A stretch of 63,640 bases of DNA, filler included, from Intoshia linei (Eukaryota; Animalia; Orthonectida): assembly GCA_001642005.1 (NCBI GenBank). It is 5 parts of 5 records of this genome, joined end to end, with 100 filler letters (N's around TTAATTAATTAA, not from the genome) between each part and the next. Parts side by side here need not be neighbours in the genome. Positions count along the whole stretch, not along the records: positions 35,723 to 56,468 come from LWCA01000676.1; 4 more parts are not named here. One strand, 5' to 3'. Of this stretch, positions 14,401-56,064 are shown one piece after another. The notes beneath the pieces are model-generated. The model did not search any database. It had not been told where the DNA came from and saw nothing but the letters and a program-made list of their open reading frames with translations. The translations under genes were made by a program, and so were the position numbers. Numbering within the stretch: the first letter of the stretch is position 1; every line of letters begins with the position of its first letter.

Positions 14401-16933
14401 CAGTTTTCTATATTTATGTTATTTTAATATATTGTATCATGATCTGAGCAGTCCCGAACCGATCTTACCGAAACACCTCAGTGGGAGGGTGGCTCATTTT
14501 TCCATATTGTGCATCTAAAAAAAATATTCGTAAAGTTCAAACTATTTTTGAGTTAAATTAAAAAATGTCAAGTTGAGATCCTTGGACAGTTGGCAGGGCT
14601 GTGATACGAATCGTTTTGGAAAATTCTTTTTGAGGCCCATTTTTAATTTTCGGTGGCACCGAATGAATAGGTTTCACTCTAATCTGGGGTATGGCTCAAC
14701 ACGTAACGTTCCCATCTAATGCCGTCCAAAATAGGTCCGTATACATTCCCGTGCCAGTACATGTTTTTCCATAATTTAAGGACCCAATATACACACTGTA
14801 ATTATAATTAATTTTTAATTAACTTTTTGATGGTTAATTTGCATTGTATTCAAGTTGCTATAAATTCTACTAAATATAATTAGTAAAATCTTGACACTTA
14901 TCCAGAGCCTAACGTACCAAGCTCGAGACCATTCCCGAAAATCAAAAATATGGCCCCAAAAAAAAATTTTAACGATGCGTAGTGTCATAGATGACCCTCT
15001 CCCAGAGTTTTAATTTGACATACACAATAGTTAAAAAAATTTTTTTGATATTCAAGAATACAATATTTTTAGATGCACAATTTTGAAAAATAAGGCCCCT
15101 TTTTACAAAAATTTGTCATCCCTCCCCAAAGAGGGACTCGAAATACGGCAAGTTCGGTTCTACAATTATTAACCAGTCATGCTAATTTCGAATCATGATT
15201 ATATTATATGCCGTTTGGTTATATTTCAACTACATTGATATGTAAATCGAAGCTTTTTATTTTTATCAGACTCGAAGAATATAGACCGGGTACAAATTTA
15301 ATGCGCTGATTAACGTGGTATTATCAGTTTTTTCCAATCATATCAAGTTTTCGCGTTGTGACCATTTTTATAAATTTTAGTCAGGTTGTTGACACGACTA
15401 TAGTTCATTATCAATGTTGTTAACATTATAACATTATCAATACTACATTATCAGAAATTTTATAAATTACATATATTACATTAGAAACGTTAAAGCAATG
15501 GCTTTTATTGTACAATATTTTGCTAATCAATATGTAACATTAAAAAAGTTACAATTCAAAAACTATCAATATAATTTTGAAAAAATGACAATTTTTGTTT
15601 ATAATTCATAATCACATTCAATTCATAAATTATCTATATGGCACACTATGCCTGTGGTAACATTTTAAATTTGTTACCATTTCTATACTTTGCAACTACT
15701 GCATATGAAATATGTAATACGCACTGTTAACTTGAAACTTTTTTATTACTATGAAAAACAATATTTATTATAGAAAATATTATTAACCCAACCATTTTTA
15801 CTAAAATCCAACCATTCTTGCCAACCTTAAAGGGAAAAACCCACTTTTCCAACCTATTTAGGGAAAATTTCACTTTTACCAACCTTTTAGCGAAAAATTG
15901 ATTTTCACAAACTCATAAGTGAAAATTCTAATTTTACTAACCTTTAAGGGAAAACCCTACTTTTACAACAAGAACTTTACCTATTTAGGGAAAATTCTAA
16001 TTTTACCAACCCTATTAATGAAAAAATCAGTTTTACTAACCCTTAAGGGATTAATCCACTTTTCAGACCCTTGAACGAAAAATCCAGTTTACCAACCCTA
16101 ACAGGTTAAAACCTTAAATGCATTTTTTTTTTTAGGGTTGGTAAATTTTCATTTTTAGTAAAAATGATTAGATTTAATTAAAAATGATGTGATTTAAGTA
16201 ACCCCTTTATTATACATATTAATTTGCGAAAGATTGTACAATAATAATTATAATAACCTTGCAAATGAAATATTTGAAAAAAATTTGGATAATTTTAATA
16301 GGATTAGTTAATGAAATATAGCTGTTAACAGCGGCCCGACCAAAATATTTAAAAATAGGGATAACTCGAAAAATTGATGTGATTAAAAAAACAAATTATA
16401 CCACGTTAATCGTCGTATAAAACTTGTACCCCAAGTTTATTTTTTATGTTCGGTAAAAAAACCTCGCATAATAATACAGTATATTCAATTGTATAGTATA
16501 TATATTTAGGCTGCATATAGAAATAATTTGTCCATTCATTATGACTATACTTATGAAAATGAAGGTATTTTGATTTATCTAACTTATGACGAGTCCATCA
16601 AACTAGTTCGTGGAATAATTTTTAAATACAAAGTATTCTGACTTAAACAAAGTTGGTAAAAGTGCGATTTTTGAGCAATTTGAATACTTGTTGAAAATAT
16701 AATATATGTATCAGTGGCCACTCTTATCCAATTCATTTAATCCAGTCTGTACGACCAAAGAATTTATTTTCCATAATTTAGTACATTACGAATCAATGCT
16801 TGAAACCTACAGTTCGATATCTGATTTAAGTCAAAAAACAATTATAAAAAGACACTACAAAATAAAACTTGTCGTAACAGCAATAATTATATTAATGTTA
16901 AGTACATCTATTTTCACAAAAATATTTATATAA
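11430..16933 (+). CDS. MATE / SLC47-family multidrug and toxin extrusion transporter, C-terminal half (about 9 exons)
   Basis: Exons translate to GSALALTCSY...SWKG|FTRESFVYWKSFIKLIIPGILMIALEFFIFEIG...ELDTQSI|LPVGVEISTAILIGQHVGSGD|GLFTND|FFDG|CKGILYGTGRQ...YYFIGLPI|GFWFAL...TNWND, plus the extra C-terminal TM helix typical of animal SLC47. Confidence 0.9.
12771..13056 (-). mobile_element. Non-autonomous Helitron-like repeat; related copies at approx. 2175-2330, 31490-31620, 37560-37810, 49035-49203
   Basis: The minus strand starts ATCCTTACTTATATAA, has a TGTTTGTGTGTG tract, and ends in a GC-rich segment followed by GTACGTAGT. The shared block TTTATTTCAATAACTACC...AGAATTTT...ATTACAGTTTTTT recurs in the other copies. 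Confidence 0.55.
15290..16430. repeat. Foldback element with an internal ~29-30 bp degenerate tandem repeat (TTTTACCAACCCTTTAGGGAAAAT..., 15800-16145)
   Basis: Inverted arms GGGTACAA...ATTAACGTGGTAT (15288-15345) and ATACCACGTTAAT...TTGTACCC (16365-16431) flank roughly ten degenerate tandem units. Confidence 0.7.
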
Positions 16934-35722: not shown

Positions 35723-36247
35723 AAACAAAATGTTTCCTAATATGGGTGTTTTATGGATATTTACCATTTTGGCTAAAGGCATCTGATACACAGCAAGCTA
35801 GGATCAATGATATGGCTATGGTCATTTCTTGGGAATCAATGTAGACAATTAACCCCATTTTCAAAAGAATAATATTTTGCGCGAAATTAAAATTCATGAA
35901 CCACAAAGAATATCTTACAAATGATGTTACCAATGTCAAAAATGCTCCTTCTGTTAATGACCCAGTGGAGAGAGCATCAATGAAATTCAAGAAAGCCATT
36001 ACCATATCTGATATAGAAGACGAACGACAAAAAATAGTATCAATAATAATGATTTATAATATTGTAAATGTATTATAATAAAGTTATTTCTTGAAAATTT
36101 TCTGAAATTTTTAATGTCTTCCTGCGGACTCAATCCTTAATTGTATATATTAAAATTGAGCCATTCTTAATAATTTATTGATGTGAACTGAATTAGCCCT
36201 GAGCGGCAAGCAAAATCTAAAAAAAATGTAAAATATTGACACCCTAA
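35723..36247 (+). mobile_element. DNA transposon remnant (hATm-like transposase C-terminus and terminus)
   Basis: YLPFWLKA...NDM; SVNDPVERASMKF...DERQKIV; ends with ...CACCCTAA. Confidence 0.55.
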
Positions 36248-36383
36248 TGTACTGAGTGAACTCAACTCAATACAATAAAAATTAAAATAAATAGTAAAAT
36301 TTAAAGTGTCACTTTTATTGTTATTTTATGATTAAATTAATTTATTTAGCCGATCGTGTATAACAAATTTCAATTATAAATAT

Positions 36384-37098
36384 GGGTCAAAAATGACCCT
36401 GTGTGAGTAGTGAAGGGTTAAGGGATAAATCCGGTTTTACCAACCCTAAAAGGAAAAATTCCAGTTTTACGATAGTAGTAGTAGACAGTAGTTCGAAAAG
36501 TGAAGATGAATCAAATTATGAATACTTTAGTGATGATCTGAGTGAATCGGATGTATGTTTGCCTGATATTGATGATGGAATATTTATTGGAAAGGATTAT
36601 ATCACTAAATGGAAAATTTATGAAAACAAACTTGAGTCCACAAATATCAAAATAATCTCTATACAACACAAATATAGCAAAACCAGAGATGCTAAATGTA
36701 TAGATAACGAATTCCATGCTTTTCTTGGAATGAAATTGGAAATAATAATAAATAAAACATAAGTTATATCAAAATTCAACTAAATGGATATCAATCTGGT
36801 ATGCATAACGCGAACACTAATTGTTGTAATGATTCAATTTTTTCCGATACATCAAATAAAAGACGAAGGTGTCATTTATATATTTTTGATATTAATTAAA
36901 AGAAAACTAAGAATATGTGTGAATTATGCAATGCATATATTTGTAGAAACCATTGTTATTTAATTTGTAAACATTGTATAGAATTAAATAGCTCAAACAA
37001 TTAAATTTTACAACTGACATTTTTATTGCTTTTATATATTTTTCATTCATTAATATGGGTCATTTTTGTCCTTTGCGACTATTTACGTTTTAAAAATG
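36384..37098 (+). mobile_element. piggyBac remnants (one terminus at 36384-36420, internally deleted transposase with C-terminal Cys-rich ribbon, terminus near 37098)
   Basis: GAGTAGTGAAGGG|TTAA; acidic N-terminus ...FIGKDYITKW; RRRCH...CELCNAYICRNHC...CKHC; GGGTCATTTTTGTCC...GTG|TTAA. Confidence 0.7.
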
Positions 37099-37149
37099 CG
37101 CGAGCATTAAAGTGTTAAAGGTTGGTAAAATTGGGATTTTTCCTTAGGG

Positions 37150-40100
37150 ACTTGTATTTTTATTTTATGTATATTTTATACTAATCTCCAAGTAGATTAA
37201 TTTAACATTTTCACTAATGTTGACAAACGATAAAAATCATTGAATCAATTGACATTACCCGTCAAATAATATAATTTCAAAAAACTTGTCAAAATTTAAT
37301 TACAAACTTTACATAAAATCAACACCGATTAGCATACACGGAATAACGATAAATTTGAAACAATTTATAACATGCAGGTTTAACATTTAGTTTATTCATA
37401 TAAGTGTTCTAAATTTAAATAATATATCAGTTTATTATTATGGCTTGAAGTTAAACAAGAAAACATTTTAAGGGTGACACAATTGAAAATCACTGTGATT
37501 GTCATTTGTAATGTACATCAGGCATTCTCAACCCTTTTTCGCTGTGGACCCCAAAAAATTATATACATTACATCATTTGTTTATATAAAATTTGAATGTG
37601 TTACCGTTTATTTAAAAACCCAATTTCTAATAGTTTTTCAAGAGTGATGCTGCATCGCAAATTACATTTTCCGAAATTAAGTGCTTCAGGGTCAAAAACA
37701 CAATTTTATTATTGTTAAAATAAAATCAGCTTAAAATTAAAAAAAACACATTGTAAAACGCATTTGAAAGTCATTAACATTGAAACTTACATCTTCATAG
37801 TCAAAACCCAAATTACCCTTTTTTTTTTAAAGTAAAAAATACGTAATTTAGTTTTAATGGAAAATAAATATTAACATATTATTATTAGTAAATTAGATGG
37901 CCTTAATTAGTAATAATTACTATCATTGCGGAAATATCATTTGTCTCTTTATTTTATTTTTATAAATAATATTTTTCATGGATTCCTACAAAAAACTGCT
38001 GTGGACCCCGTTGAGAATGGTTGATGTACATTGTACATGACCCAAAACGTACCCTCACCAGGTTTACAGATAAATAAATAAAAAAAATAACAGATTTATC
38101 TATCATATAAGCTTTACTGTACTGCCCATCAATAAGGTACATAATGGAAAGATTGAGCAGCATGTAAGATTTTGCTAAATTGACAGTATTTGGCATCCAA
38201 GGTTTAGTGTTGACTAAAATAAATAATAAACATTAATATATACTTCTAGTGGGCGAACTTCAATAATTACGAAAAAACTGAAAAAGAGTAACTTACTCAT
38301 TATAAAAGCAAACGATAAAATCATTTAGAAACAATGCACAATATTTACTTAAAACAAAGTAATAATGGCAATCGGAGATGATTACATTTTTAAATCAAAA
38401 TTAGATTAAACACAATGAACACTGAGTCGCTTTACTTTCATTCCATCATCTAAACACGGAACAAATTGAATCGATGGATATTGACATCACAACAACCCCA
38501 AAAAGCAATTTCATAACTATTCATACACATTCCAAAAAAAATGTCTAAACATTTTGACTGCAACCCGTAAATGGCCATAGTTTATTACCTAAATATACCT
38601 TAGAAGCAAAATTTTTGAATTCTAAATTGGCGGAAACATTCACATTTTAAAAAATATTTTATAAGAAAATAGGGTTGAATGAAATCGAATGAATGCATTA
38701 ATTCAATTCAATCAGATTTAGGAGATTAACTAACTAAGATAGGTATACCTCAATTTTATGTGATGAGGAAAGATTAATTGTTTATCGTGGATATGAGTGG
38801 CTTACAACTTGCAATTGGATTCTATAAGGGATGATGTGTTGTTCTTTTGTATATTTCGATCGTTTTCTGGTAATATTCCTGCTAGTGTCAATTTCAACGT
38901 GTTCACCAATTCAACGTTGGAAAAGAAGGTAATCATCGATTATTGGCATTGGAATTCCCAAAGACTATCATCGTGTTCGAGCAAGTTATTACCCGTGCGT
39001 TTGGTGGTCTCAGAGTGATACGTTAACATTGCCAGAGGGTAAATTCACTATAAAAAACCTAATGATAGCCTAAGTCGGTTGGCATGCCACATTCTAATCC
39101 AATTCTATCCATTCAATAATTTTATAAAATAACAATGTAAGTCGGAAATAATATTATTAGATTTCTAAGTTATTTCATATAATAGCCATGTCATTTGTAT
39201 ATTGAATCAGGTATTATATTATTATCCTGTTTATCACTTAGAATTAATTTGTTGTTTCTAAATGGTATAAAATTGTGATCCTGATTTGATACTTTGAAGT
39301 AATAAAACCATAACTGATTATATAACTTATTTTATTATTTAACAAATGGGGTGGAAAGTATTTTATAGAGTTCCGCTCGAACTAATCTGGATTTTTACAG
39401 AACAAGTCAAATGGTACTTCATGTGGATTCGGAAAACCTCAGCATTAAGTCTGAGAGTTGATCGGTTCTCATACCCTATAACATGAATCAAGATATATAA
39501 AATGATTTCCATTTGAGTGTATGACGTTCACAACACTTGTGTACACAGCGTTCGGAATGTCACTGACGCACTGTTTAGAACAGTGTTTCCCAACCTTTTA
39601 TCTTTTAGTGCCCCTTATAAAATTTTCAAATGATAGCGCCCTATTAAACGGTTTATTTATACAATCGATAAATTAAATCGCCTAACCTTTTCCATCATAA
39701 TAATTTAAATATTGTGATATGTGAAGTAAATTAGAATTAAAATAAACGCAAATTAGACAATAAAAAAAATTGAGGCACGTCACTATAACATATACCAAAT
39801 TAAAAATTTTAAATGGGATTCAAAGTAAAAAATTATGATAAATTAGCCACAAACTGCAAAAATATTTTGAAGTTTAATCAGCTATAATTCCCTAGTAAAC
39901 ATTTTCTGGAACAAGTCATAGAGGTGAAAAATTTACAAATGTTTTAATTGGTATATTATAATTAATATATAATTTTTAATTATGTCTAACCAAGGATCAT
40001 CAATATCACACCTAGTCTGCTGTGAAAAAATTGAGAAGTCACCGGACAATGATTACATCAAACAAAAAATTGCATCTATTATGTAACTTCAAATAAAACT

Positions 40101-43100
40101 TTAACAATATTGTATTGCTATAATATCAAGTTATTAATAGCAGTGCTATTAACGGATGCTGCTGCATACATGTTGTTAGGAATAACCAAATTAAAAAGTG
40201 AAGCTATAATACTACCAAACGGAGAGGCTGGTATTTATAAATTTATTTCACCTAACATGTGTCATACATTTATACCATAACATGGGGTCAAAGTAAGCAC
40301 GCATTACAGAGTTGTTAATAAACTGATTACAACGCTAAACGATGATTTAGCTAAAAGTGACTATAGACGAAAAAAATTTATCAACATTCCTGTACCTCCT
40401 GTTTTCCAAAACCAGATTTGGTGTGTGGTTAAAATAAGTCGAATATTATGTAAAACATATTTTAATTGTTAAAGGCATAGTCACTAATATTTTGGGTGAT
40501 TAGAGTCTCATCAATGAAGTAGCAAATATTGAATTTTCAAATACTAGCAGTTATAACGATTATGTAGATTTTGATTATAATTGTGATAGAAAAAAAGTTA
40601 TTAGCAGGGGAACAATTATAATTATTAATTAATAAAAACAAGCGTTTAAATTAAAATATACACTTAAAGAAATATTGATTATTGATACAAGAATAGATAA
40701 GACGAACAACCATTGAACCAAGACCAATTACCATAATAATATAATTGATACAATTGGAAGTAACTTTAGTAAAATGACCAAAAAAGCCTACACTATTAAA
40801 AAAAATGATAAAACTAGTGATGGAAAGATTCAAGCAGATAAATCGGCTAAAGGTCCAAATAGACCAAATGTAAGTGATATACATTTTGACAAAGACAAAT
40901 GGCAAATGTACAGCAAAAAGAACGTCCACAATGTTCAATCACCACATTCAGTACACAGGGATTTGATTAGGTACTTAGATCTTAGCAAGGAGCAAAAAGG
41001 ACAAAAGTTATATGATTCCGTAATAGGAAGCAACTCTGAGATAGATAGATTGCCCGCAGCTCAACAAGCGAGAACGGACTCAGGGGATAGATATTATGCT
41101 CAGGCTGCAATGATGAAGAAATACACAAAGCAGAAAAAGAGACTCGATAAGAAAAATTTTTGATTTATCTAATATCTATCTTATCTTTATATCTATCACT
41201 TGTGCAATTTTTCAAATTTAAATAATTGATATGACAAAATAAGATAAACAATTACAAGATGTGGCTTATTTAACACATACCATGGAAAAACTTATGCAGT
41301 TGCAGTCTTCACAATCGAAAACCCAGGTACTTATTCAGCACTGCCTCTGTATCTATTGTCTTTTCTCGATTATAAAAAATCTGCTTATATTCGACAGTAG
41401 AAGAAAAAATGATTATAATCAAAAACAAGCAGACTTTTAAGCAGACTTTGAAAAATATAAAAAATGCGTTAAAAGAATTTAGACAGCAAAAATGACATAT
41501 GTGTAAATTATATATTCGGAAATTGCAACTCAATATGCAATAAGGAGCATATCGACCCTATATGCAACAAGTGTGGTAGGAAGGGTCACAATAAAACTTT
41601 TGTAATTCAGAAATCAATACTAAACAGTATTCGTTATTTTATATTCCTGCCAAAATAGAGGGTAAAGAGGTTTCATGTTTAGTAGATACGGGGTCAGTAG
41701 CATCGTTTTTACCAAATACTTTCACACCTAATAAAAAATCAACATCTTTATATTTCTCAGTCACGGGAGCAAAGTTATCTATCACCGGTGAATGTAGATC
41801 TAAAATAGAGATAAAGTCACTAAAAGAATCATTTATACACACATGTGTAGTATCTAATGATGTAATGTACCCTATATTAGGATTAGAGTTCTTACAGAAT
41901 AATTCAATCGACATAACTCAAAATCCTATACGATTAAAAATCAATAACTTGAATTTTATTTTTTTTGTTAGGCGATTCGAATTTAAATCAGTCGATCTGT
42001 GCGACCCAAATATTAATGGTACTACAAATCTAGAGGCAATGGCATCATTAAACGATAATTTAAAGAATATAATATACAAACATAAGCATATTTTTACGAA
42101 CAAACCAGGAAAGTCAAAAAATTACACTCACGGCATATCAAAGATAATGAAAAGCCTATAGTAGGTCATTCTTATTCACCACCTATCCACCAAAGACAAA
42201 TAGTATCGGATCAAATAAATGAAATGCTCGACAATGGAATTATCGAACTTGCTAAAAGTCAATACGGATCATCTTGTTTAATTGTAAAAAAGAAAAACGG
42301 TTCTAATCGATTCTGCGTGGATTATCGATTATCTTGAATTTGCCATACCTTCACTTTTGAATGGTGTGCCTATACTTACTGCTCCCCAAATCGCAGTAGG
42401 ACAAATTGATGATAGTATGCAAGGACGCATTTCTGATCCAGGAACAAATAAATATGGACTAGCTTCAGCACCACTTTCACTATACCATTTAATTAAAAGA
42501 TGGTCAGGAATTACATATAATGAAGGACCTTATTTTTCCTATAGACCAGCTAGAACCGTAATCTCAACCTATAGTTTAAAAGCACCTTTGTGGTTTTATC
42601 TTGAATCAATATTTAAATACATACATGGAGGTTTTGAAGTATTAATTAGTATTGAACCAATAATGTTTGAAGTACAAATAGCCAATAATCCAGAAATTAC
42701 TACAGCAGTTTCTATAACGGAAGAATACATTACTTTATGCGGAGGCATATTACAAATAAAAAACAACAAACCTTTAGGACATATACCTTATCGATGTGAA
42801 ATACCTTACAGTTTTCATGAATATCCCATTTTTGGATTCCATGGCGATGAAACTTATCAAAGGACTACTTATTCACAATCGGTAGCACAAATACTCATAT
42901 TCATAAAATTTATTAAACATGAAATCTATTAAAAAACTAAAATCAACACATTCTGCCAATAATTAAAATGAACTGGAATCGCAACCGAATTTAGTTTTAA
43001 GTCAAGGTTTATACTGATCAACTAAAAAACTGTTGTAGATAAAAAAAAACGAATACATCATATATAATAAATAAATTTCTTCATACTAACGTAGACTTTT

Positions 43101-46100
43101 TCAACGAGATGTATTTCAATCATAAAAGAAATGTATTATTCAAATTTAACACAAATAAGTAATTATAAAAATGTAGATAAATTTTGTACAATATGCGGCG
43201 TATACATAAAAAAAGACATAAATTATCTCATGAAAACCAATCAGCAAAAGCAGGAAAAATAAGTTAACATTGGTTTAAACTTTAGCGCAATTTTAAACAT
43301 GCCAACACACGCAGTCATCACTTTAACATAAAAAAAAATGATTGTAAATATTAAAAGTAATTGAATGTAGAATTTGAAATAATTACCTTTAATAAGTCTT
43401 TTTTGGTTTGGATTAAAAACGGAGACATTATCAACTTTATCAATGTTTAGAAAAGTGGCAGCAATTGAAATTTTATCAATATGCATATAAGCTTCAGCCA
43501 TATACATTCTAACAACATACCTAAACATTATATAAAAAGTAAAAAAATTTAAACTTTTGAGCGGGTGAAGATTCATCAGAATGAAGAATCTTTTCCCCAT
43601 AATAGAGACAATTGTAGTAATCACCAAGATGCAATAAAATATAAATTTTCATTGAATATACGGCCATTCTAAAATACATTTATAAGTTAATTAAGTTTTT
43701 CTTTATCATTCATTTTTTATATTTTAAAACTTAAATATATAGTGGAATCTCGATTATACATAAAGCAAATTGCACAATATCTTTGTGCTATTTTTGTTAT
43801 AACTAAAACAGATTTAAATTACAACTAATAAATAAAGGTAATTTGGCGCCACATTTGAAAACTAACGATAATGAAAATTAAAAGCAATTTAATAAATTTG
43901 TTTGATAAAATCAAAATAATTGATGAGGTGGAATTAGGGAAAACCTATGGTTAAGTGGCTGCAAAATTTCATAAGGCTAGATCAACTATTGTGTCTATAT
44001 TCAAAAATAAGAAAAATATTATGAAATTGAACCATGATAACACAAAAATTTTAAAAAAAAGAAAATCTTTGAATTTGGGTCTAATGATAACATGGATAAA
44101 GCAGTTCTTCGATTTTTTCTGCAAAAAAGAGTAGAAAAATTACCTGTTTATGCGTATGTTACAGGAGTATGAGAAAAATTATATTGAAGAAAATGATCCA
44201 AACAGTACCATAAAATGTAGTTATGGCTGGCTACAAAGATTTCAAAAAAAGATTTTCAATATCCCTCAGAATATTATCAGGTGAACAATTGTCGGCTGAA
44301 ACTTCTAAAGTGGATCAATTTAAAATTCTTTTTAAGGATATTATAAAAAAAAAGAATTAAAATTATGTCAAATTTACAATGCTGACAAAAGTGCCAGCTT
44401 CTGGAGGAAAACTTGCAAAAATTCATTGGTGCATGCATCCGAAAAAATTGTCAAATTGCAAATTTTCAATAATAAAAGGCATTGAGCCAAAAGCATTATT
44501 GTTATTAGACAATGCACCGGCCCATAATCAATCGGAGCATTTAATTTCCGACGACGGTCTTATATCAGTTTTATTTCTGCCACCCAATTGTACCTCAATT
44601 CTTCAACCCATGGACCAACACGTTATAAATTCGATTAAACTCAAATACTCTAATAAATTAATGAAACGTATTATGGGAGAACGATAAAATAGAAGAAAAT
44701 TTAAAAAAAATAAATATATTGGACGTTGTAACAATGCTTCAAGATTCTTGGGAATGTGTGACTGAAAACGAAATAAAAAAATCGTGGAAATTGGTCAAGA
44801 AAATAACATTGATTATGAAATTGTAACCTCATCTAGCGTTGATAGCGATTTGTCTGAAAATTTACCTATAGACATTGTCAATATTATGCATGATTTTATA
44901 ACTGGAAACGATACATCTGATTCCATTGATGAATATAATACTGAACCTGATACAGAATTGATACATATTCCTTATTTTAATGATACAGAAGATTTTGATC
45001 TGGCAATAGAAAAAGTGGAATCCTTGATTCAGTCATCCAATAAACTTGATATGGATTGTAAATTAAAATGTTTAATAGATAATAAAAAATTGTTACTTGA
45101 AAAAAAACAAAATTATATACAAAAATTGTAGTTTAAATGTAAATATGAATAAATTATCTTTTTTATTGTTATTGTATAAATTATTATTCCGTTATCGATT
45201 ACTGTATATCAATGATTCTTCAATTATTAACTCTCAAAAATTAATTCTCATTAATTATCAACTACTCTTTTAAAAATAATCTATCAATAAAATAAAAATT
45301 GTTGTTCGCGATGGTCCTAAATTATTGTATATTGATAAATCTGGCCCTTCTGAAAAAAAGTTGAGAACCCTGCTGCATACATACAAATAGATGTTGTTTG
45401 TACGTAGCACAACACACTCTGATCAGGGTTTTTTAATATTTATACTCAATTAAGTTTTAAAATAAAATTTCATCATTATTTAGTATATTATAATCTATTA
45501 AAAATACTAATTCTTATTTCAACAGAATTATCTAAACTTAAAATTTAATATGAAGTTTTGATAATTGACTGTATGTAAGATCGAGATTCCACTGTACAGA
45601 GAAAGGTATTTAAATTAAAAATTCATTAAATTTTGTTAAAATGCAATGTAATATAAATATGGGAATAATCGCTGTTATTAAACTTGCAATTTATTCAGGG
45701 TCCAAAATATATTGTCATTAGAAACAGGGTAAACTCATAATACAATATATTCTATTTTAATAGTTGAATACATTGTTTTAATTGTTATTATATTATGAAT
45801 TACATGAATGCTTCGGTTTCAGCAGTAAACATGGGTTTAGCTGGTCGACATGGAATGAATCTAAAACATTTTAAATTAAATAAAAGATATCATTATTCAT
45901 AAGAAAAATATAATTGATTAATGATAAATTTTAATAAAAAATAATGTAACAATTAATTTAATAATAATTTAATTAAAATCAAAGTAAATGCTAGTATATT
46001 TATATCGTTAACTTCAGTGCATATAAACACAGTGGATTCAACTGAGTTAAACCTCAATGAAAAACATCAGGTGATAACGAAGTTTCTTTTTCTGGAAAAA

Positions 46101-49100
46101 CGATATTGATTTCATTTTTATACAAACAAACTTGTTCTCAATAGAGTTCTGCAACACGGTTCAAACCTATTGTTCAATAACTATTGACCACTATTTAACA
46201 AACAAAAAATTAGAAATTTTAACAAATATTTTTTTAAACTGAATTCAATATAATTGTATAAAAAAAGTAAAATTAACACAATTGTACTTGCAATAATTCA
46301 GTTATAATGCTTTTTAACGAAAATCTCGTAAACTTCTTTTACATAATACTGATAATTACAATTAATATTACCCATAAAGTTGCTTGGATCGAGGCCAGTG
46401 CTTATCCGTTATATTTAACGCATTTTCTATACATATGCGGGCAAGTTCATAACTTGGTTCAGGGTTTTCAGACAATATACCATCCAGCAACTTTCTAAAA
46501 GAAATATAAATTGAATAACAATTGAAGTCACTGAAGAGTTAATGATAGAAATGATAATCAATTTCATTATGATCGTGCACGAATTCGTTTAAATCGCCTT
46601 GGGGTTAAACCAAATTTTTCAGATATGATAGAAGAAATATGTAAATAAGAGGAAGTCAATGCAACTATGGAACGTATTATATTCTATAATTCGACACGAA
46701 ATTTAAATGAATTAATTGATGTATTTATTAACAGATTGTATGTGCAAGCTGAGAAATGTAAATTTGGTATTGAAACAGATAATCGTCTTAGAGATATAAT
46801 AATTCTTAAAGTAAACAATTATAAATTACAAACAATTATTAAAGAAAATTATTTGAAATTACGACGTAATCAATGAATGTAAAAATTTTGAAATTTTATA
46901 TAATCCTAATATAAATGCTATTAAATTTGATGATGAATCTAAACCTATAACGGATTTAAAAAAAATCTCCCATTGTCAAAAAGAGTGCTATGGATTACAT
47001 TACTATGTGGAAAACATTGTGTAAATAAAAAATATGATTGCCCCGCATGGTCGCATAAGTGTAGCACGTGTGGTAGTTTCTCTCATTTTGATCATATATG
47101 TCCATCTAAGGGTTCAGTTAATGCGGTCGATAGCTTACAGGATGTGAATTCATTATTCATTCAATTGGAAACAAATTTAAGTCTGTTAATAAATTTAATT
47201 CAATTAATCGTGTTGAGGTTAATTCTCTTAATTCAGAATATGAACTTATTATTAATCGATTTAGTAAAGTATTTAGCGATGTGTCAGGTAGAATTAGTAA
47301 TATGAACATAATATTCCATTAGTGAATGAAAATATAAGATATAAAAGTCCTATTTATCCCACACCATTAAATCTCAGGAAATTTGAAATAAATCTAATAA
47401 ATGATATGTTAAGTAATGGTATCATAGAACCTGTTGATCATTTGAATGACCCTTGCACATATTGGAAGTCTCCAAAATTGGTAACCAATTCAGGATGGTA
47501 TTTAATTTTAAAAAATTGAATGAACAAACAACAAAAAAATACTTATCCAGCACCTAGCTTCCAGTCCTGTTTAGATCATATAGCTGGTAATAAAATGTTC
47601 ACAACACTGGATCTTGTATCAGGGTTCCACCAAATTTTACTGAAACCGACTGATCGTAATAAAACAGTCTTCTCTTCAGGATATGGAAATAAATTATATC
47701 GCTTCAAACGCATGCCATTGGGATTATGTAATGAGCCGGCAACATGTCAGCGTGTTATGGAGAATATACATTCAGTGATTGTTTATATGGATGATATTAT
47801 TATAGCTTCTAAGAATCGTGCCGACCACATACAAGATGTGACACAGGTTTTAACCAGATTAGAAAAATTCGGTGCTACTGTCAAACCTTCAAAATGTAAT
47901 ATCGGACAAACTGAAATGTATATTCTGGGTCACCTAATTAATTGCAGTGGCATCTTCCAGACAGGAATTGGCGCTGTTTTACGACAGAATGATAAAGTCA
48001 TAGAATATGCTAGTACTTCCTTTAAAGGTGCCCAACTTTGTTATAGTACTGTTGTCAAAGAATTTTATGCCGTTTTATGGAGCGTCAAAAAATTCAAACA
48101 TTATTTATATGGTCGGAAATTCATTGTTATAACCGATCATAATCCACTTACGAAAGTCTACTAAACTAACTAATCGTCTTCACAGATGGGTTGAACGTTT
48201 GGAAATATTTGATTTTGATATAAAATATCGTCCCGGTAAATTAAATGTGACAGCTGATGTTCTATCTAGATTAACCTCAAATATCATAGTGAATTCTATA
48301 GTCACTAAAGAATCCTTTGACATTTATTAACATCAAAAATCTGATCCTCATATTACACCAATAAAGGAATGTAGTGATATGAAATTTCTCCAAAAATCGA
48401 ACCTTTATCACTATTATCGCAACCACATTACTATGAGCGACGATATCGTTTATTTCAAAAAAAATAACGCCTCCTTTCCGATTGTTCCACAGTCACTTAC
48501 TTCCTCAGTAATCAATTTTTTTCATAATAATCTGTCACCCAGGAGTTTCTAAGCTATACAAGATCATTCATCAGAAATATGTTTGGTCTAAACAGCACAA
48601 TGATATTCGACAATTTACGGCAAAATGTACCATGTGTAACGTAAATAAACAATAAAATATCAATATAAACCTTATTGTATACATTTATTATCGTAATCAG
48701 AAACATAATTTGTATTTTATTGATTAAATATCTTCATTTTCACTACAGGAGTATATCGATTTTTAAAAAGTCATCAATGTCATATTTTTTTCTTAATTGT
48801 CATAATTTAAAAAATTTTTTATTTTCTTTGTTTAAATGTCAAATGTACTAAATTATGTCACTTAAATCAACAATTTATGTTTCAAGTGCATTATTTTAAT
48901 ATTAGTTAACCAACTATAAATCAACCAAACCTGCAAGAACAACTTTTATATATAAGCATGAACTATGAAACATTTCCATCAATAATTAAACTCTCCAACT
49001 CGTTTAATTTTCAAAAAGAGGGATAACAGCAGTTTTTGACCCTTAAGATGTGAAATTGGGAGGTTGAAATATATCTTAATATACGTCCCGAAAAAAACTG

Positions 49101-52100
49101 TAATTGAAATGTGGTCTTTAAAAAATTCTAAGAGTGGTTTTTATTTAAATAAAGCTGAACACACACAAACAAAAATCGCGTCGCATTTTATATAAGTTAG
49201 GATAAATACGCATGCCATACAACATACTTTCTTTTCCACTTATGTAGTACATAGCGAGCAGGGATTCTTATAATTATGATCAACAGGACATGCATAGGAT
49301 CGACGTCTCTTTTCCAGATAAATCAAGACTTAGTTATGGAATTCGGTATTCAAATTTGAAGTGTTACTTATTGAAGGGTCCAAAAGTATAAAATCAAAAT
49401 TTGAGAGAATAAAAATGGCCTAATATTTTAAGTGTAATCAAGAAACTAAAACCTACATTTATATCAACATTACTGTTAAATTCTGACATTACATGACTAA
49501 ACATCTACATCATAAAAATTTTGACTGGAAAACCCGATATGAAATATATAACCTACTCTCAAATTACCATATACTTGACTCGAATGATCCACTTCTATCT
49601 ATCAGATGTCAAATATTTCATACAATATAATTTTATCAAAATTTTTGTACCACAAAAATATACAATCATTATTGAATTTACGATAAAATGAAAAATAGAA
49701 TCATCAAACTTGCCTAATACATCAATTATAAATTGTCTGAAGTGGTTTTTGTTACACTGGTAAATGTTTGAAAATTTAAATTGTAGTTACAAACAACTTG
49801 TCCTCTCTAAAGAAAGTTTGCACGACACGCATGAAATAAATTAAAACGAAAGAAAATTGAATACCATTACTTAATTATAAATGTAATTATAATCAGTATT
49901 GCATATCGAACACTAATACTAAATACTAAAACAAAAATGATTATAATCATCAAAATAAAGAGTTATATTTATATACACAAAAAGAAAGGTAGAGCAAAAA
50001 ATTCAAATCACATTGACTAACAATGGCGAGGTTAAAGAGAAAAATTTTTCATGTGTAATTATACATGTTAAAAACTTTCAAAATTGATGAAATTTTGAGA
50101 TGCCCCAATATTGTATAATTAATAAAATTTTGGAAAATACCAAAACATACAAATACTGCTAGTTTGACGGGTTTAGGTCGGTGATAACTGGAGAACGTCG
50201 GCCTGTATGTGACCAACAACAATAACATAATTGAAATAACTAATTTTATTTTAAAATAAAAAAGTCAGCAAAAACCACAAACAGGTTAAAAATAAATGAA
50301 ATAGTGTACTTATCTATGTGATAATCGGTTCCAGATTTACATTCAGCAGTATAAGATGGATATATTATATATTTTCGATGGATTCCTTGACCAACAATTT
50401 CCTTCAAACAATCTTTACCAGAGTAAGGTGATACATTGAATTCATTATTCATATTATCCGGTGTGACCTATACAACTTTTATTTCAAGCATATTTCTTGG
50501 TATTTCAAAACTTTAGTGCAAGGGACTGGAAATACTTGATAGTAATCAATTTTATATCAAATTCAATAAATTTTTTATACAAAATTGAAAATGGCGTATG
50601 CAATAGTAAAATACTCACAAACCCATTAAATTTTGAAAATACGGTACATTAATTAAATGTAAACTGTAAAATAATTCAATAACCCACAAATACATGTTAT
50701 TGTTTACATTATAATCATTAAACTGTACTGGTTACTCAAAAATATAACTTTTGAAGATTGAATGATCACTTTTCGAAGGGGTTTCAATTAATGATACATG
50801 ATTTTAAACAATTTAAAATATTTTGATTGATAAACTATTTAATATTGATTGATATTTAATATCTCGACAATACGGAAAAAATATTATTGTCAATTTATGA
50901 TCATATTACTTGGTATATTTCGAGCAAAAATAACATTTTATAAGTTTATAATAGATAAAACTAAATTTTTTAAAAATAGCTTTGAAATTAATTTTTTTAT
51001 AATCCTTAATTAGATTTCATCTTTATTATCAAAATTTTAGAAACTAAATTTTTTAAAGTCGTCACTTTTGAAGCCGACTATTGCATCAGTTTCATTATAA
51101 TTATACTAATTATAATTACTTATTATAATAAGCTCATCAATTTTTTGATCATTGTTGATTAAAAATATTTTTAATTTTTGAAATGTAAAAATGTATTAAC
51201 TTATTTGCAATAATAAATTACAATTTAAACATACATGTATGTATTTAACATTAAATTAATATTATTTTCAATAATTTAAATCAATTAATTCTAACTCCTG
51301 TGTAAATTCAATCCAACCAATTTTTTTTGAAAAAAATATTTCATACAATATAAATTTTTTAAAATCCAATTGTATAATGTTCTACCTCAAAAAAAGTAAA
51401 CTTGTCGACGACAACAAATTTTAATGTAAAAGATACACTGTACCTATAAAAATTAAACGTTACCTTATTTATTATCATGGTAATACATTCAGCTAACCTG
51501 AGCCATAATCTAGGATTATCAGAATAAGATCGTAAAGCCATCTTTAAATATTTGAACGATTCGACACAATAACCATTATGAAAAAGAGAAATTCCAGTAT
51601 TATAGTTAATACGATCTTCCAAATCAATGTGTTCATATTTTATTGAATCACGATAGTACTCTAATGAAAAATATTAAACATTTTTGGCAATTAAATATAT
51701 TTATCCATAAACCCACTTTTACCTGCCTTTTTCTACAATATCACAAACAAATCTGATGCTATATTTGTTTTAATTTTAAGATCAGAGCCAAACCTACCAA
51801 TCTCGAGATCACCCGTAAATCAAAAATAGGCCATTAAAAATATTAATCTAATAATAGTCTCTAGCCACCTATTCAAAGGTCTTGACTTTATATTTCAATT
51901 CTCAATTTAGAAAAATAAGCCGTTTTACAATATTACGTTATTTCGTCAAGCCCCGAATATGGTATCGGTACTATAACTTCGGATCTGTCTAGCTCATAGG
52001 TTCGTAAACTTTTTCCACTCCTTAATTCAATAAAGTTGTATGTATGTAAATTTAATAAACTTATTAGGACTATTATTATTTTAAAAAAAGGGTAATCTGT

Positions 52101-53998
52101 GGTTTTGATTGTAAAAATACAGTTTTTTAGAGTAGCGGTTTATGATAATGTTTATGATTTTAAAAAAATTACAGCATGTATGTTTTATAAAATTCTAAAA
52201 CTTTTTCTTCTTTAAAAAAATGTAATTTGAGGTTTTGCCCATGAAGATGTAAGTTTCTGATATTGAAACTTACGACAATGTTAATGACTTTAAACGCGCC
52301 CCAAAATTTAAATTTTTTCAAATTTTTCAAAAAATGGACCAATTAAGTTTTTAAGCCCCAAAAAATTAATAAGGCCGTACCATTCTAAATAAATTTAATC
52401 TAATACAGCATGGCTTTTCATGGTGTAAATAATTTTATTAGGGTTGAATACAAAAATTTTAAATGATTAATATCAAATAAACCAGAGTTTCCCACAATTT
52501 TTTCATGGCGGAGGATAATAAATTATAAAATTTATCGCACACCATTTAAAATGAAATTACCAGGAAACATTAAAAAAAAATTTTTTTAAAATTTTCGCAC
52601 CGTTTATCCTATATTTGAAATTTCCAGATTAAAATAGGTTATCTTCAATAAATAAATGATAACATTTGTCAGTAAAAATTAAAATGTGGAATTTAGATTG
52701 AAATACAATTTATTTTTTTTCTTGGAAAATTTCCAAAGTCATAAAACTAAAATTAAAAATTGACCATAAATGAACAATATAGATTTTAATATTATTTCAA
52801 TAAATGACATTGATTTTTAAAAATTAATGTTACTCTCAAAATATCAATACATTCATTTAAAGTTTCATTTAAATAAAATTGTTATTGGCTGAAATTAGTC
52901 AGTAATGTAAAAAAAAATAAATAATAAACCAGCATCATGCTTCAATTTGAGAGATTCTTTGTAATTATTGAGTTTCATCGATTTACACAACTTGGCAGCA
53001 TAATTGAACTGAAGAATAGCAGTTTCAAACCTACCTAAAGCAGCAAAAACAATTCCATGATTATTAAGGCTAATAATTTTAAAATAATCATTATTAATAT
53101 GAGAAAAGGAATATTTTTGCATAATTTTAAGTGAGAAAAGAGGGTTAAAATTTAAAAGTTGCTTGTAAGCCAAAAGTTGAGAAATTACATAACAATTATC
53201 GTTTAAATCAAAAATTTTATCCAAATTTTTGCCATCTTCAATATAAAATCCAATACTGCGTAATCCTGAAAAAAACATTTCATCGCTTTTTTCATGTTGT
53301 TCTTCCGATAAAACTGCAATAAGTTTTAAATAAGAAATTTCAAAATTAATTTCAGTTTGAAGGTATCCAGTGCAAAGTTGAAATAAATCGGATGCAGAGT
53401 CAGTATCTGATTTATTTAAGGAATTAATGTGTGATTTTAAATAACTTTCAAATTCAAACATGTTTTTGTGAAAAGTGAGAAAATTATTGATGAGTAGCAG
53501 ACACTTGCATTTTAAAAGATAAAAAGCAACAATTAAATTTTGTTCCAACTCACTAATGAATGACAAACAACCGTCAATTAAAGTAATGCAAGTGTAATAG
53601 TGTAATAATTTGAAATGTTGAATCACTAAAACGTAAATAAAAGATGAAAATTCTAAACAATTCGGTACTCCATTACATAATTGTTCTCCCGTTTCTTTGT
53701 TGTATAGTTTAGCAATGTTTCTTACGTAAATGTCAAAATTTTTATTTGATAAACCCTCATTTGTACTCAGATTTTGTACATGTTCCATTTTTTCCAAATT
53801 TTGATAATAATCACACACATGTTTATTGAAAGTAATTGTACAATCGTCTTCATCTTTTATCAGGTTTGATATCAAATTTTTCGATTCCATGTAATTTCCA
53901 TTGTAAAATTTTTTTAATGTTTGATAAGACAAGTGGTATATATTTTCAGCGTTTGATTCAAATTCATCTTGATTATTTAAAGTTTCATCGTTCGACAT
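37150..53998 (-). CDS. CNOT10: CCR4-NOT complex subunit 10 (TPR protein), multi-exon; 3' end approximate
   Basis: LNNHGIVFAALGRF; INYNTGISLFHNG...YSDNPRLWLRLAECI; EIVGQGIHRKYII; FIPCRPAKP; YILLHLGDY; MYMAEAYMHIDKI; MLLNLSIMY; LIYLEI. These segments occur in the order expected for CNOT10. Confidence 0.9.
39983..40600 (+). pseudogene. hAT-like (DUF659/CGGBP-type) transposase fragment
   Basis: VLLTDAAAYML...VNKLITTL...RRKKFINIPVPP, with frameshifts. Confidence 0.7.
40774..41163 (+). other. Orphan 129-aa ORF of unknown, possibly viral, origin
   Basis: Intact, protein-like ORF that is more G+C-rich than its flanks. No TE or host motif recognised. Confidence 0.35.
41230..42330 (+). mobile_element. 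Ty3/gypsy gag-protease-RT(N-terminal) fragment
   Basis: Zinc knuckle ICNKCGRKGH; protease IEGKEVSCLVDTGSVASF...PILGLEFL; RT start EMLDNGIIELAKSQYGSSCLIVKKKNGSNRFCVDYR, where homology stops abruptly. Confidence 0.92.
42327..42932 (+). pseudogene. Endogenous picorna-like (Picornavirales) virus capsid fragment: VP3 C-terminus plus most of VP1
   Basis: Open frame with DYLEFAIPS (cf. VP3-end DDFEFAVP), SLYHLIKRW (cf. VP1 SLR.LLKRY/F), YLESIFKYIHGGFEVLI (cf. Y...YRFYRGG.R.K) and CEIPYS (cf. EVPYY), in the correct order and with plausible spacing. Confidence 0.75.
43740..45594 (+). mobile_element. Near full-length decayed pogo/Tigger element in a CNOT10 intron
   Basis: TIRs (T)AGTGGAATCTCGAT / ATCGAGATTCCACTG with TA on both sides. 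HTH motifs, IYNAD, ALLLLDNAPAH and FLPPNCTSILQPMDQ. Confidence 0.92.
46360..48660 (+). mobile_element. Decayed Ty3/gypsy element (gag, zinc knuckle, RT, RNase H, integrase N-terminus)
   Basis: FINRLYVQAEKCKFG...RLRD; CPAWSHKCSTCGSFSHFDHIC; LDLVSGFHQI, RMPLGL, VYMDDIII; GIGAVL, KEFYAVLW, TDHNPL; ADVLSR. Confidence 0.92.
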
Positions 53999-54655
53999 AA
54001 TTTTTACTTTTTCATTTATTATAAAATATTATAACTTTATTGAATTGATTAAACTAGCAACAAAATATAAAAAATTTGTAACAATTTATTTATCTATTTA
54101 TCATAAACTTTATAGTTCCTTTTTATTTTTATTATTTTCATTGAAAATTTTTGTAACGAGTTTAATTTCTTTTTATTCTCATTGATCACGTTGTATGTTA
54201 TATTCGATTGATTCGTGCTGAAACTTTCGTCTGCTGTTAAGTTATGTAATTGGTTGATGTTAGGTATATAAGTTTTTCACTTGTAAACTTAAACTTATAT
54301 CCTTAAAATTTATATCACACACCTTATTTACATTCCCAAATGGTGTTATAATTTGTTGTATTATAGTTGGAACTATAGCTAAAAATCGATCACTACGCCA
54401 ACAATCTAATTGTTTGATTTTATAATTCCACATCATCCGCTGTCTTGTCTATTCTTCTTGGAACTACTTGATTATGAATAAGAAATGAATTGTAAATATC
54501 ATACATTTGCCCATCAGGATCCAAAAACAATAAAAAACTAGCTCTTCTCTTTGCATACGAATCTACTTGAGGTTCATGATATAATGCTTTCGATAATCTT
54601 ACCCCAAACGTCTCCCAATAAATACTCCATTCGGATGACAAAGTTGACCACTCTG

Positions 54656-56064
54656 TCGTGAAAAATTTTATACCTACCAATTGAACGATAATTGAGATCA
54701 ATATAGAAACAGCATTACACTAACAAAACAAAGTAATTGAGCAGTGTATTTTAAGCCAAATTAAGTTTAGGTTAAATAACAGCGTGCAAAATGAACGAAA
54801 TTGTGCATTATTATAAGCCAAAATTATACTATACTATTTTAGTCACAAATATTGACTAAAATTAAATCGGTAGGTATAAAATTTTTCACGACGGATTGAT
54901 GTTATTCCAAAATTTTCGACCTACCAAAAAAAATTTTTTTACACATAATTCACTCTGAACTGAACTCCGAAAAATTTTACGGTAATTTATATCATAAATT
55001 TTATCAGTCTTTGATGAATAATACGTGCTTAAATAAATTCTCATATTACTGTTAAGCAGTGGTTCAACCGGTACGCCGAAAAGAAATTTGAGTTTATTTT
55101 GTAAATTTTATATTATACTTATCAAATCATTTTTATTTATTAAAACAAACTTCAAATGTTAATTTCTTTGATTTTACGATCGGTTTGATATCGACGGGAT
55201 TAAAATTATTGTTTAATTAAAACATCCTGTTGAGGAAATTTATTGTTATTTAAATGTGATCTTTGGAAATTTGATTTTTTTTATAATTCGAGCTGATTAT
55301 AAATTAGATAATTGTTTATCATTGCTCTGATTTAAATTTTCAATTAAAACTAATCTTGTCAATTCTTTAAAAACGTAATCTTCAGGAATTCTATCTTTTT
55401 TTACACATAGCTTAATTTAATTTTGAACGCATTTAGAACTAAATTAATTATTGTAGATATTTAATTAAAATATTTAAAAAATAAATCTTTTATTGTAAAA
55501 TTCGTTGCTGATTGATTTTTATACAACAAAAATAATTTTTAATTTTCAGGAATTATTTATTTATAGTATTTTTTTAATTATCTATTCTTCATAAACTGAT
55601 ATAATTTAAAAATCTTGCGTTGAAGCGCTAATAGTGCACGGTAAAATTTTTAAGAGTTCTTTATGGCCTGTTCAGAGTGAATTATGTGTAAAAAAATTTT
55701 TTTTTGGTAGGTCGAAAATTTTTCAATGATAACATCAATCCGTCGTAAAAAAAATTTTATGCCTACCGATTTAATTTTAGTTAATATTTGTGACTAAAAT
55801 AGTATAGTATAATTATTGCTAATAATAATGCAAAATTTATTTATTTTTCAAGATGAAATATAACCTAAATTAATTTTGGTTTATAATAATACACAATTTC
55901 GTTCATTTTGCAGGCAGTAATTTAACCTAAAATTAATCTGGCTTTTGTTTTGCTTGTTATGTGTGCTTATGTTACTGCTCAATTACTTCGTTTTGTTAGT
56001 GTGATGCTGTTTCTATATTGATCTCAATTATCGTTCAATTGGTAAATATAAAATTTTTCATAAC
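54656..56064. mobile_element. Foldback / non-autonomous DNA element with ~330-400 bp terminal inverted arms
   Basis: 54656-54985 is the reverse complement of about 55640-56064 (e.g. AATTGAACGATAATTGAGATCAATATAGAAACAGCAT). The end motif GTCGTGAAAAATTTTATACCTACC is repeated internally. Confidence 0.85.

Follow-up and report, generated by a model that had tools for sequence, protein, structure and literature searches.

A CNOT10 intron of the orthonectid Intoshia linei holds transposon remnants and a probably young fragment of a picorna/calici-like viral polyprotein, all assignable pieces lying antisense to the gene

Is a patchwork of transposon, orphan and virus-like sequence inside the intron of a housekeeping gene an array with a function for the host, or the residue of unrelated insertions? 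In Intoshia linei, this question is raised by CNOT10, a gene with one intron of 5.2 kb that we analyzed within a stretch of 63,640 nucleotides (hereafter the window) made of five parts of five records of the assembly GCA_001642005.1; the gene lies on the minus strand of the part taken from LWCA01000676.1 (window positions 35,723–56,468). The original prediction, made from the sequence alone, described the intron as two GC-elevated orphan islands, a hAT-like fragment, an orphan open reading frame (ORF), gypsy gag, protease and reverse transcriptase (RT) sequences, and a picorna-like capsid, and held that the same architecture is repeated in the OSBPL8 gene. Our results show a true CNOT10 intron containing a gypsy remnant, unassigned debris, and a viral polyprotein fragment; these likely arrived as independent insertions filtered by orientation, and the viral one, an endogenous viral element (EVE), is probably young.

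Contigs from four public runs of two studies (X1–X4, as contigs) were aligned to window positions 35800–55000. Contigs of X2, X3, and X4 join 38213 to 43387 and omit precisely 38214–43386, the ends of which read CT..AC on the plus strand and GT..AG on the minus strand; the joint is absent from X1. The intron therefore exists with exactly the predicted coordinates, and the exon junction 43387/38213, for which a check against RNA-seq had been proposed, was found in the contigs of three of the four runs. The surrounding gene structure agrees with CNOT10: listed joints support each of the seven introns from 54032 down to 38096, every exon has an open frame, the exon 51464–51658 matches three solved CNOT10 chains in PDB (E 2.6–2.9e-07), and contig 22 of X4 contains the first and the last three exons. 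A CNOT10 intron of only 34 nt was also observed at 43519–43552, 132 nt away from the 5.2-kb intron. None of the listed splice joints occurs in X1, which behaves like genomic DNA. X4, which carries the guessed label 'DNA?', was read as cDNA because its contigs join exons and leave much of the intron uncovered; strictly, it could also be a processed copy.

The viral part of the intron was identified by homology. A HMMER search with 42333–42929 gave five matches, namely the 171-aa product predicted from this frame in public protein sets (P0001), three viral polyproteins of 2,436–2,625 aa (P0002, P0003, and P0005; E 1.6e-40 for P0002), and a repetitive protein with no viral domain (P0004), which was discarded as spurious. 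When the three polyproteins were compared with the whole window by tblastn, 42333–42908 was the only significant match, and residues 2224–2425 of P0002 (2,453 aa) aligned to it with 44% identity over 205 aa (E 4e-40). The Pfam domains of these relatives run in the order RNA_helicase, Peptidase_C3, and RdRP_1, with the structural part after the RNA-dependent RNA polymerase (RdRp). One of them is named Cryptolin calicivirus 1 (WOC29232.1), and its database entry places it in unclassified Picornavirales. A recent preprint groups this virus with Beihai sesarmid crab virus 2, Wenzhou picorna-like virus 38, and Rudphi virus 1, and the relatives in the group come from clams, snails, and crabs (10.1101/2025.06.19.660416). 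A word-indexed search with the viral piece among longer proteins gave nothing, and scans of IMG/VR and JGI metagenomes gave no relative of it.

In the alignment with P0002, the viral piece lies downstream of the RdRp and spans the last G-Q site at residue 2247, which we take to be a 3C-type cleavage-like site. The piece was assigned to the capsid because of this position, and likely comprises the end of one capsid protein plus the greater part of the final one; about 190 residues are present, ending 28 residues short of the C-terminus of P0002. No Pfam or PDB sequence match was obtained for the piece itself; the PDB sequence searches made gave no capsid match, and in one of them the best 60 of 95 rows were polymerases. 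Folds predicted for the piece alone and with a four-row alignment had a mean pLDDT of about 29 and were unusable, and a weak Rhv capsid match in P0005 (E 0.0075) lies upstream of the region aligned to the piece. Of the picorna-like capsid module originally proposed, the viral homology thus stands firmly, and its capsid nature is likely, as read from position.

The placement of this piece in host DNA was judged from the contigs. Contig 4 of X1 (1,728 nt) covers 42333–43007 with no letter differing from the window and one 3-nt insertion, and extends 100 nt beyond the viral homology, from where overlapping contigs continue rightwards to 43200; its depth is 19.1, against 15–21.7 for neighboring contigs of unique intron sequence. 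X1 (study P1) is possibly the window's own source, and X2, from the independent study P2, contains 42532–42742 (211 nt) with no letter differing from the window. We regard the piece as an EVE because it has unique-intron depth and overlaps into the downstream intron in X1, and is unchanged in X2. It combines homology to an RNA virus, continuity with host DNA on the right side, and occurrence in samples of two studies, as a non-retroviral EVE would. The left side is different. Contig 4 departs from the window at 42333, exactly where the viral homology begins, its first 1,050 letters have no placement anywhere on 35800–55000, and no bridge from gypsy to capsid was found among the contigs listed. 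The X1 gypsy contigs diverge by 3–4% from the window, as collapsed copies of a family would. Because contig 4 leaves the window at 42333 and the join is unbridged, we consider the gypsy–capsid join to be either one allele, arisen by deletion, or a product of assembly; the EVE itself probably extends beyond what the window contains. The adjacency of gypsy and capsid that had been predicted was accordingly not confirmed.

Three other explanations of the viral piece were weighed against these data. That it is contamination misassembled into the record, and not part of a host chromosome, would fit the lack of contig support for its left join; this is scarcely credible, since the piece occurs at unique-intron depth in X1, a run without splice joints, runs on into the downstream intron, and recurs in the second study. 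Alternatively, the join 42332/42333 may be the original junction of a gypsy–virus chimera formed by template switching during reverse transcription. The RT in the window stops just past its first conserved motif and the viral homology starts from the next codon, and recombination between retrotransposons and viruses is an established route (PMC6455143). We nevertheless consider a chimera unlikely, because contig 4 continues upstream into letters without placement on 35800–55000, the join is unbridged among the contigs listed, and neither a long terminal repeat (LTR) nor a downstream gypsy part follows the capsid; the unbridged join by itself proves nothing, as a minor allele could have been dropped. 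A further explanation starts from the reading frame. No stop interrupts the 192 codons of viral homology, and the frame is open to 42932 (214 codons in all), unlike the neighboring remnants in the intron, which are full of stops; this suggests that the insertion is young. The open frame and the predicted 171-aa product could also indicate co-option as a small nested gene on the plus strand, whose capsid fragment interferes with the virus. Such a role is very improbable: the 211-nt contig of X2 is the single short contig of the spliced runs that covers the frame, 28 residues are missing at the C-terminus compared with the relative's polyprotein, and a young insertion would equally give an open frame.

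Evidence of the same virus group was also found elsewhere in the species. Searching the structural region of P0002 among shorter proteins gave three matches. The I. linei protein A3Q56_08327 (OAF63968.1, P0006; 620 aa), encoded on a separate 2,537-nt contig outside the window, is 44% identical to P0002 residues 1557–2231 and, judged by its sequence, is a second genome-encoded EVE fragment of this group. It comprises the end of the RdRp together with the structural region before it, and shares only about 8 residues of overlap with the window piece, which are not identical; tblastn of A3Q56_08327 against the window gave no match. On P0002, it ends within about 8 residues of the point where the window piece starts, the residues there differing. 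A search among shorter proteins with the non-structural part of P0002 returned a single unnamed fragment. Three unnamed fragments (P0007, P0008, and P0012), located on short NCBI contigs, are 69–74% identical to P0002 and, from their sequences, are likely pieces of one further virus in the group. A viral-family RdRP in I. linei has been mentioned in a single sentence (PMC6396948); the published literature that we searched gave no account of these Intoshia EVEs beyond that line. The viral fragment would be a germ-line record of infection of this lineage by a little-known picorna/calici-like group, and, together with A3Q56_08327, it indicates that viruses of this group likely infect orthonectids.

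The remaining modules of the intron are less well defined (Table 1). Of the gypsy gag, protease and RT that had been proposed, the protease (RVP, 41595–42158) and the start of the RT (Ty3 RT match, 42086–42331) are present in that order, the gag-like part has no profile match, and the rest of the element is missing from this intron. No long direct repeat that could represent flanking LTRs was found, and the sequence is therefore a remnant and not an element. The two islands, with borders set by eye, are indeed GC-elevated, as their GC contents are reached by 1.2% and 1.5% of windows of equal length (window mean 0.268); no Pfam, Rfam, or tblastx match and no assignable strand were obtained for either. 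The proposed hAT-like fragment proved weak. A single motif at 39581, which resembles a hAT-type terminal repeat, is accompanied by no paired inverted repeats and no transposase or dimerisation domain, and Pfam and tblastx were negative; a loose contig end at 39599 in X2 is suggestive of a repeat end. The orphan ORF is present, and its 148 codons (40717–41163) exceed what chance would give, this length being reached in 5 of 1,000 shuffles; it has no significant Pfam family, Pfam being the sole search made, and it could be of viral origin as well. The 5.2-kb intron as a whole showed no repeat structure and no Rfam match. The Tigger and the gypsy expected on the plus strand of the next two large introns were both confirmed by their domains, the Tigger also by its inverted ends.

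Table 1 Features of the CNOT10 region of the window, with positions counted along the whole window.
Feature	Position	Strand	Evidence
CNOT10 last coding exon, downstream of the intron	38096..38213	-	spliced X4 contig 22; open frame
CNOT10 intron, 5,173 nt, GT..AG	38214..43386	-	joint 38213->43387 in X2, X3, X4; donor and acceptor read from sequence
GC-raised island 1	38740..39110	.	GC 0.375; no Pfam or Rfam match
GC-raised island 2	39340..39590	.	GC 0.382; no Pfam or Rfam match
Single hAT-type terminal-repeat-like motif, no transposase	39581..39593	+	one motif; Pfam and tblastx negative
Orphan coding-like stretch, decayed, containing an open frame of 148 codons	40053..41163	+	frame length reached in 5 of 1,000 shuffles; no significant Pfam family
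Incomplete gypsy (Ty3) remnant: gag-like region, protease, start of RT	41243..42331	+	RVP E 4.6e-07; Ty3 RT E 0.001
Non-retroviral EVE from the C-terminal region (likely capsid) of a picorna/calici-like polyprotein	42333..42908	+	P0002 44%, P0003 37%, P0005 30%
CNOT10 exon upstream of the intron	43387..43518	-	spliced contigs; open frame
Remnant of a Tigger/pogo-type DNA transposon, inverted ends both present, next large intron	43741..45593	+	DDE_1 E 8.6e-13; Tc5 helix-turn-helix; matching ends
Cryptic CNOT10 exon of antisense Tigger sequence, stop at 9th codon	44144..44304	-	joints 43802->44144 and 44304->45804; AG/GT ends
Remnant of a second gypsy with RT, RNase H and an integrase zinc domain, further CNOT10 intron	46943..48652	+	Pfam

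Part of the antisense sequence enters spliced CNOT10 RNA. The Tigger exon is joined on both sides in X2 and X3, and not in X4. In the resulting isoform, the 161-nt Tigger exon and a 134-nt exon extension (43669–43802) add 295 nt, which causes a frameshift and an early stop. The contig depth of the Tigger exon compared with the plain joint is 164–187 vs 142 in X2 and 28 vs 53 in X3, contig depth being a poor measure of expression level and contigs giving neither strand nor level. In addition, contigs X2#9 and X3#16 both start (record position 29) at 38749, where a minus-strand GT is found; this is likely a minor cryptic donor at 38749/38748 (minus strand) on the edge of island 1, which would bring the islands into spliced RNA. 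No joint among those listed places the viral piece in spliced RNA.

To count orientations, we used Pfam on 242 short frames between 14 and 52 kb, plus further frames, together with tblastn strands. The pieces counted in CNOT10 introns were the gypsy, the capsid, the Tigger, and the second gypsy, and those in the OSBPL8 intron, which was inferred from Oxysterol_BP matches continuing across it, were a Spin-doc zinc finger, DDE_1, Tc5/CENP-B, and Tc3. Every one lies on the plus strand, and the claim that all assignable pieces are antisense to CNOT10 was borne out. Four elements elsewhere in the window, for which the genic context was not mapped, are on plus (one) and minus (three). The OSBPL8 intron gave no tblastn match to the three viral polyproteins, so the feature repeated between the two genes is transposon debris and not a viral module; the OSBPL8 intron contains DNA-transposon pieces on the plus strand, and the supposed common architecture was not confirmed. 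Since splicing removes the 5.2-kb intron from CNOT10 transcripts, the unspliced precursor carries antisense viral and transposon copies as had been expected, and nothing shows the repeated, purposeful architecture attributed to them.

The orientation bias is real, and a plain cause is at hand in purifying selection, which has been held responsible for the tendency of mammalian LTR and LINE elements in introns to lie antisense (PMC3088655). The plus strand of the intron is A-rich, and AATAAA occurs 15 times on it vs 6 times on the sense strand (about 2.5 times as often); the three large introns together have 45 vs 17, and an intron without an assigned transposon has 11 vs 2. A-rich coding strands inserted in the sense direction would introduce poly(A) signals and be eliminated, so that the survivors would oppose the gene; the modules likely accumulated by independent insertion, and antisense pieces likely persist because they least disturb the host transcript. 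The mix of unrelated families and the lack of repeat structure count for independent insertions. The viral RNA would have been reverse-transcribed by the RT of a retrotransposon, with germ-line insertion at a fairly recent date, and the antisense RNA would probably leave with the lariat and be degraded. Several observations weigh against this account. All eight assignable intronic pieces are antisense (4/4 in CNOT10 and 4/4 in OSBPL8; two-sided p 0.008, some of the matches being below Pfam curated cut-offs), and seven of seven are so when gypsy and capsid are counted once (p 0.016). Five of the eight are DNA transposons, a class left out of the orientation analysis of PMC3088655, and the count covers no more than two genes. 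Moreover, antisense Tigger sequence is present in spliced CNOT10 RNA of two of the three spliced runs, which means that not all antisense RNA stays in the lariat.

A defensive function was also weighed. The CNOT10 intron, and that of OSBPL8, may be genic traps whose antisense RNA is cut into PIWI-interacting RNAs (piRNAs) or small interfering RNAs (siRNAs) protecting the host. Antisense-biased transposon and viral fragments do lie in one transcript (4/4 in each gene), CNOT10 is transcribed across them, and cryptic splicing puts the antisense Tigger, and likely also the islands, into spliced RNA; in Drosophila, antisense insertions in expressed host genes suffice as triggers (10.1101/2025.07.28.667215). 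The triggers published there, however, are 3′ untranslated region (UTR) or exonic sequences acting via cytoplasmic transcripts, whereas our viral piece is in no spliced RNA among the joints listed and OSBPL8 has no piece of this virus group. We therefore find the trap explanation unlikely. Its broader form, in which large introns of housekeeping genes in this reduced animal genome act as dispersed immune traps and cryptic splicing exports antisense-bearing, stop-containing CNOT10 isoforms that feed small-RNA silencing, as a heritable defense of the parasite against a picorna/calici-like virus, is improbable. A defense role is possible at a similarly low level and less likely than ordinary insertions. 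Should antisense small RNAs be found, genic piRNA traps would come to include, beyond 3′ UTRs, introns that carry cryptic exons; otherwise, the piece is an ordinary EVE. The locus is likely an ordinary graveyard of insertions, and what gives it value is the trace it preserves of a poorly known group of viruses.

Other repeats were observed in the window. A very high-copy short repeat at 48986–49203, resembling a miniature inverted-repeat transposable element, has an X1 bin depth of about 6,100 vs about 15–20 for unique DNA and occurs also at about 2175–2304 and 12885–13061. Two long inverted-repeat pairs (7584–8055/10253–10727 and 54659–54960/55670–56060; 87–95% alike) are likely ends of non-autonomous DNA transposons. 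A loose tandem array with units of about 30 nt is located at 15800–16100, and seemingly related short pieces are found near 36420–36470 and 37115–37156.

Among known systems, the genic piRNA traps formed by tirant in the 3′ UTRs of Fs(2)Ket and cactus (10.1101/2025.07.28.667215) and flamenco resemble this locus in that host transcription yields antisense transposon RNA. They are exonic or a dedicated cluster with proven piRNAs, whereas the viral piece here is intronic and known from sequence and contigs alone. The intronic antisense bias described in PMC3088655 shares the opposition of elements to gene direction; it concerns mammalian LTR and LINE elements, whereas here DNA transposons are included and only eight pieces were available. 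With the Cryptolin calicivirus 1 group, the viral piece shares 30% identity to the C-terminal region of WOC29232.1 and 37–44% to two unnamed polyproteins of the same helicase–3C–RdRp–structural order; it is, however, only distantly related (best 44–47%), about 190 residues long, and without a capsid profile or fold match. A further parallel is offered by the non-retroviral EVEs of arthropods (nrEVE/NIRVS). In mosquitoes, EVEs occur near gypsy and Pao elements, and Aedes EVEs give rise to antisense piRNAs (PMC6455143); the EVEs of horseshoe crabs are transcribed yet yielded no piRNA or siRNA (PMC12282059). As in those cases, a fragment of an RNA virus resides in host DNA beside gypsy and antisense to the surrounding transcript; the CNOT10 locus differs in being an intron of a housekeeping gene and not a shown piRNA cluster, and in representing an unclassified picorna/calici-like group with a likely non-arthropod host.

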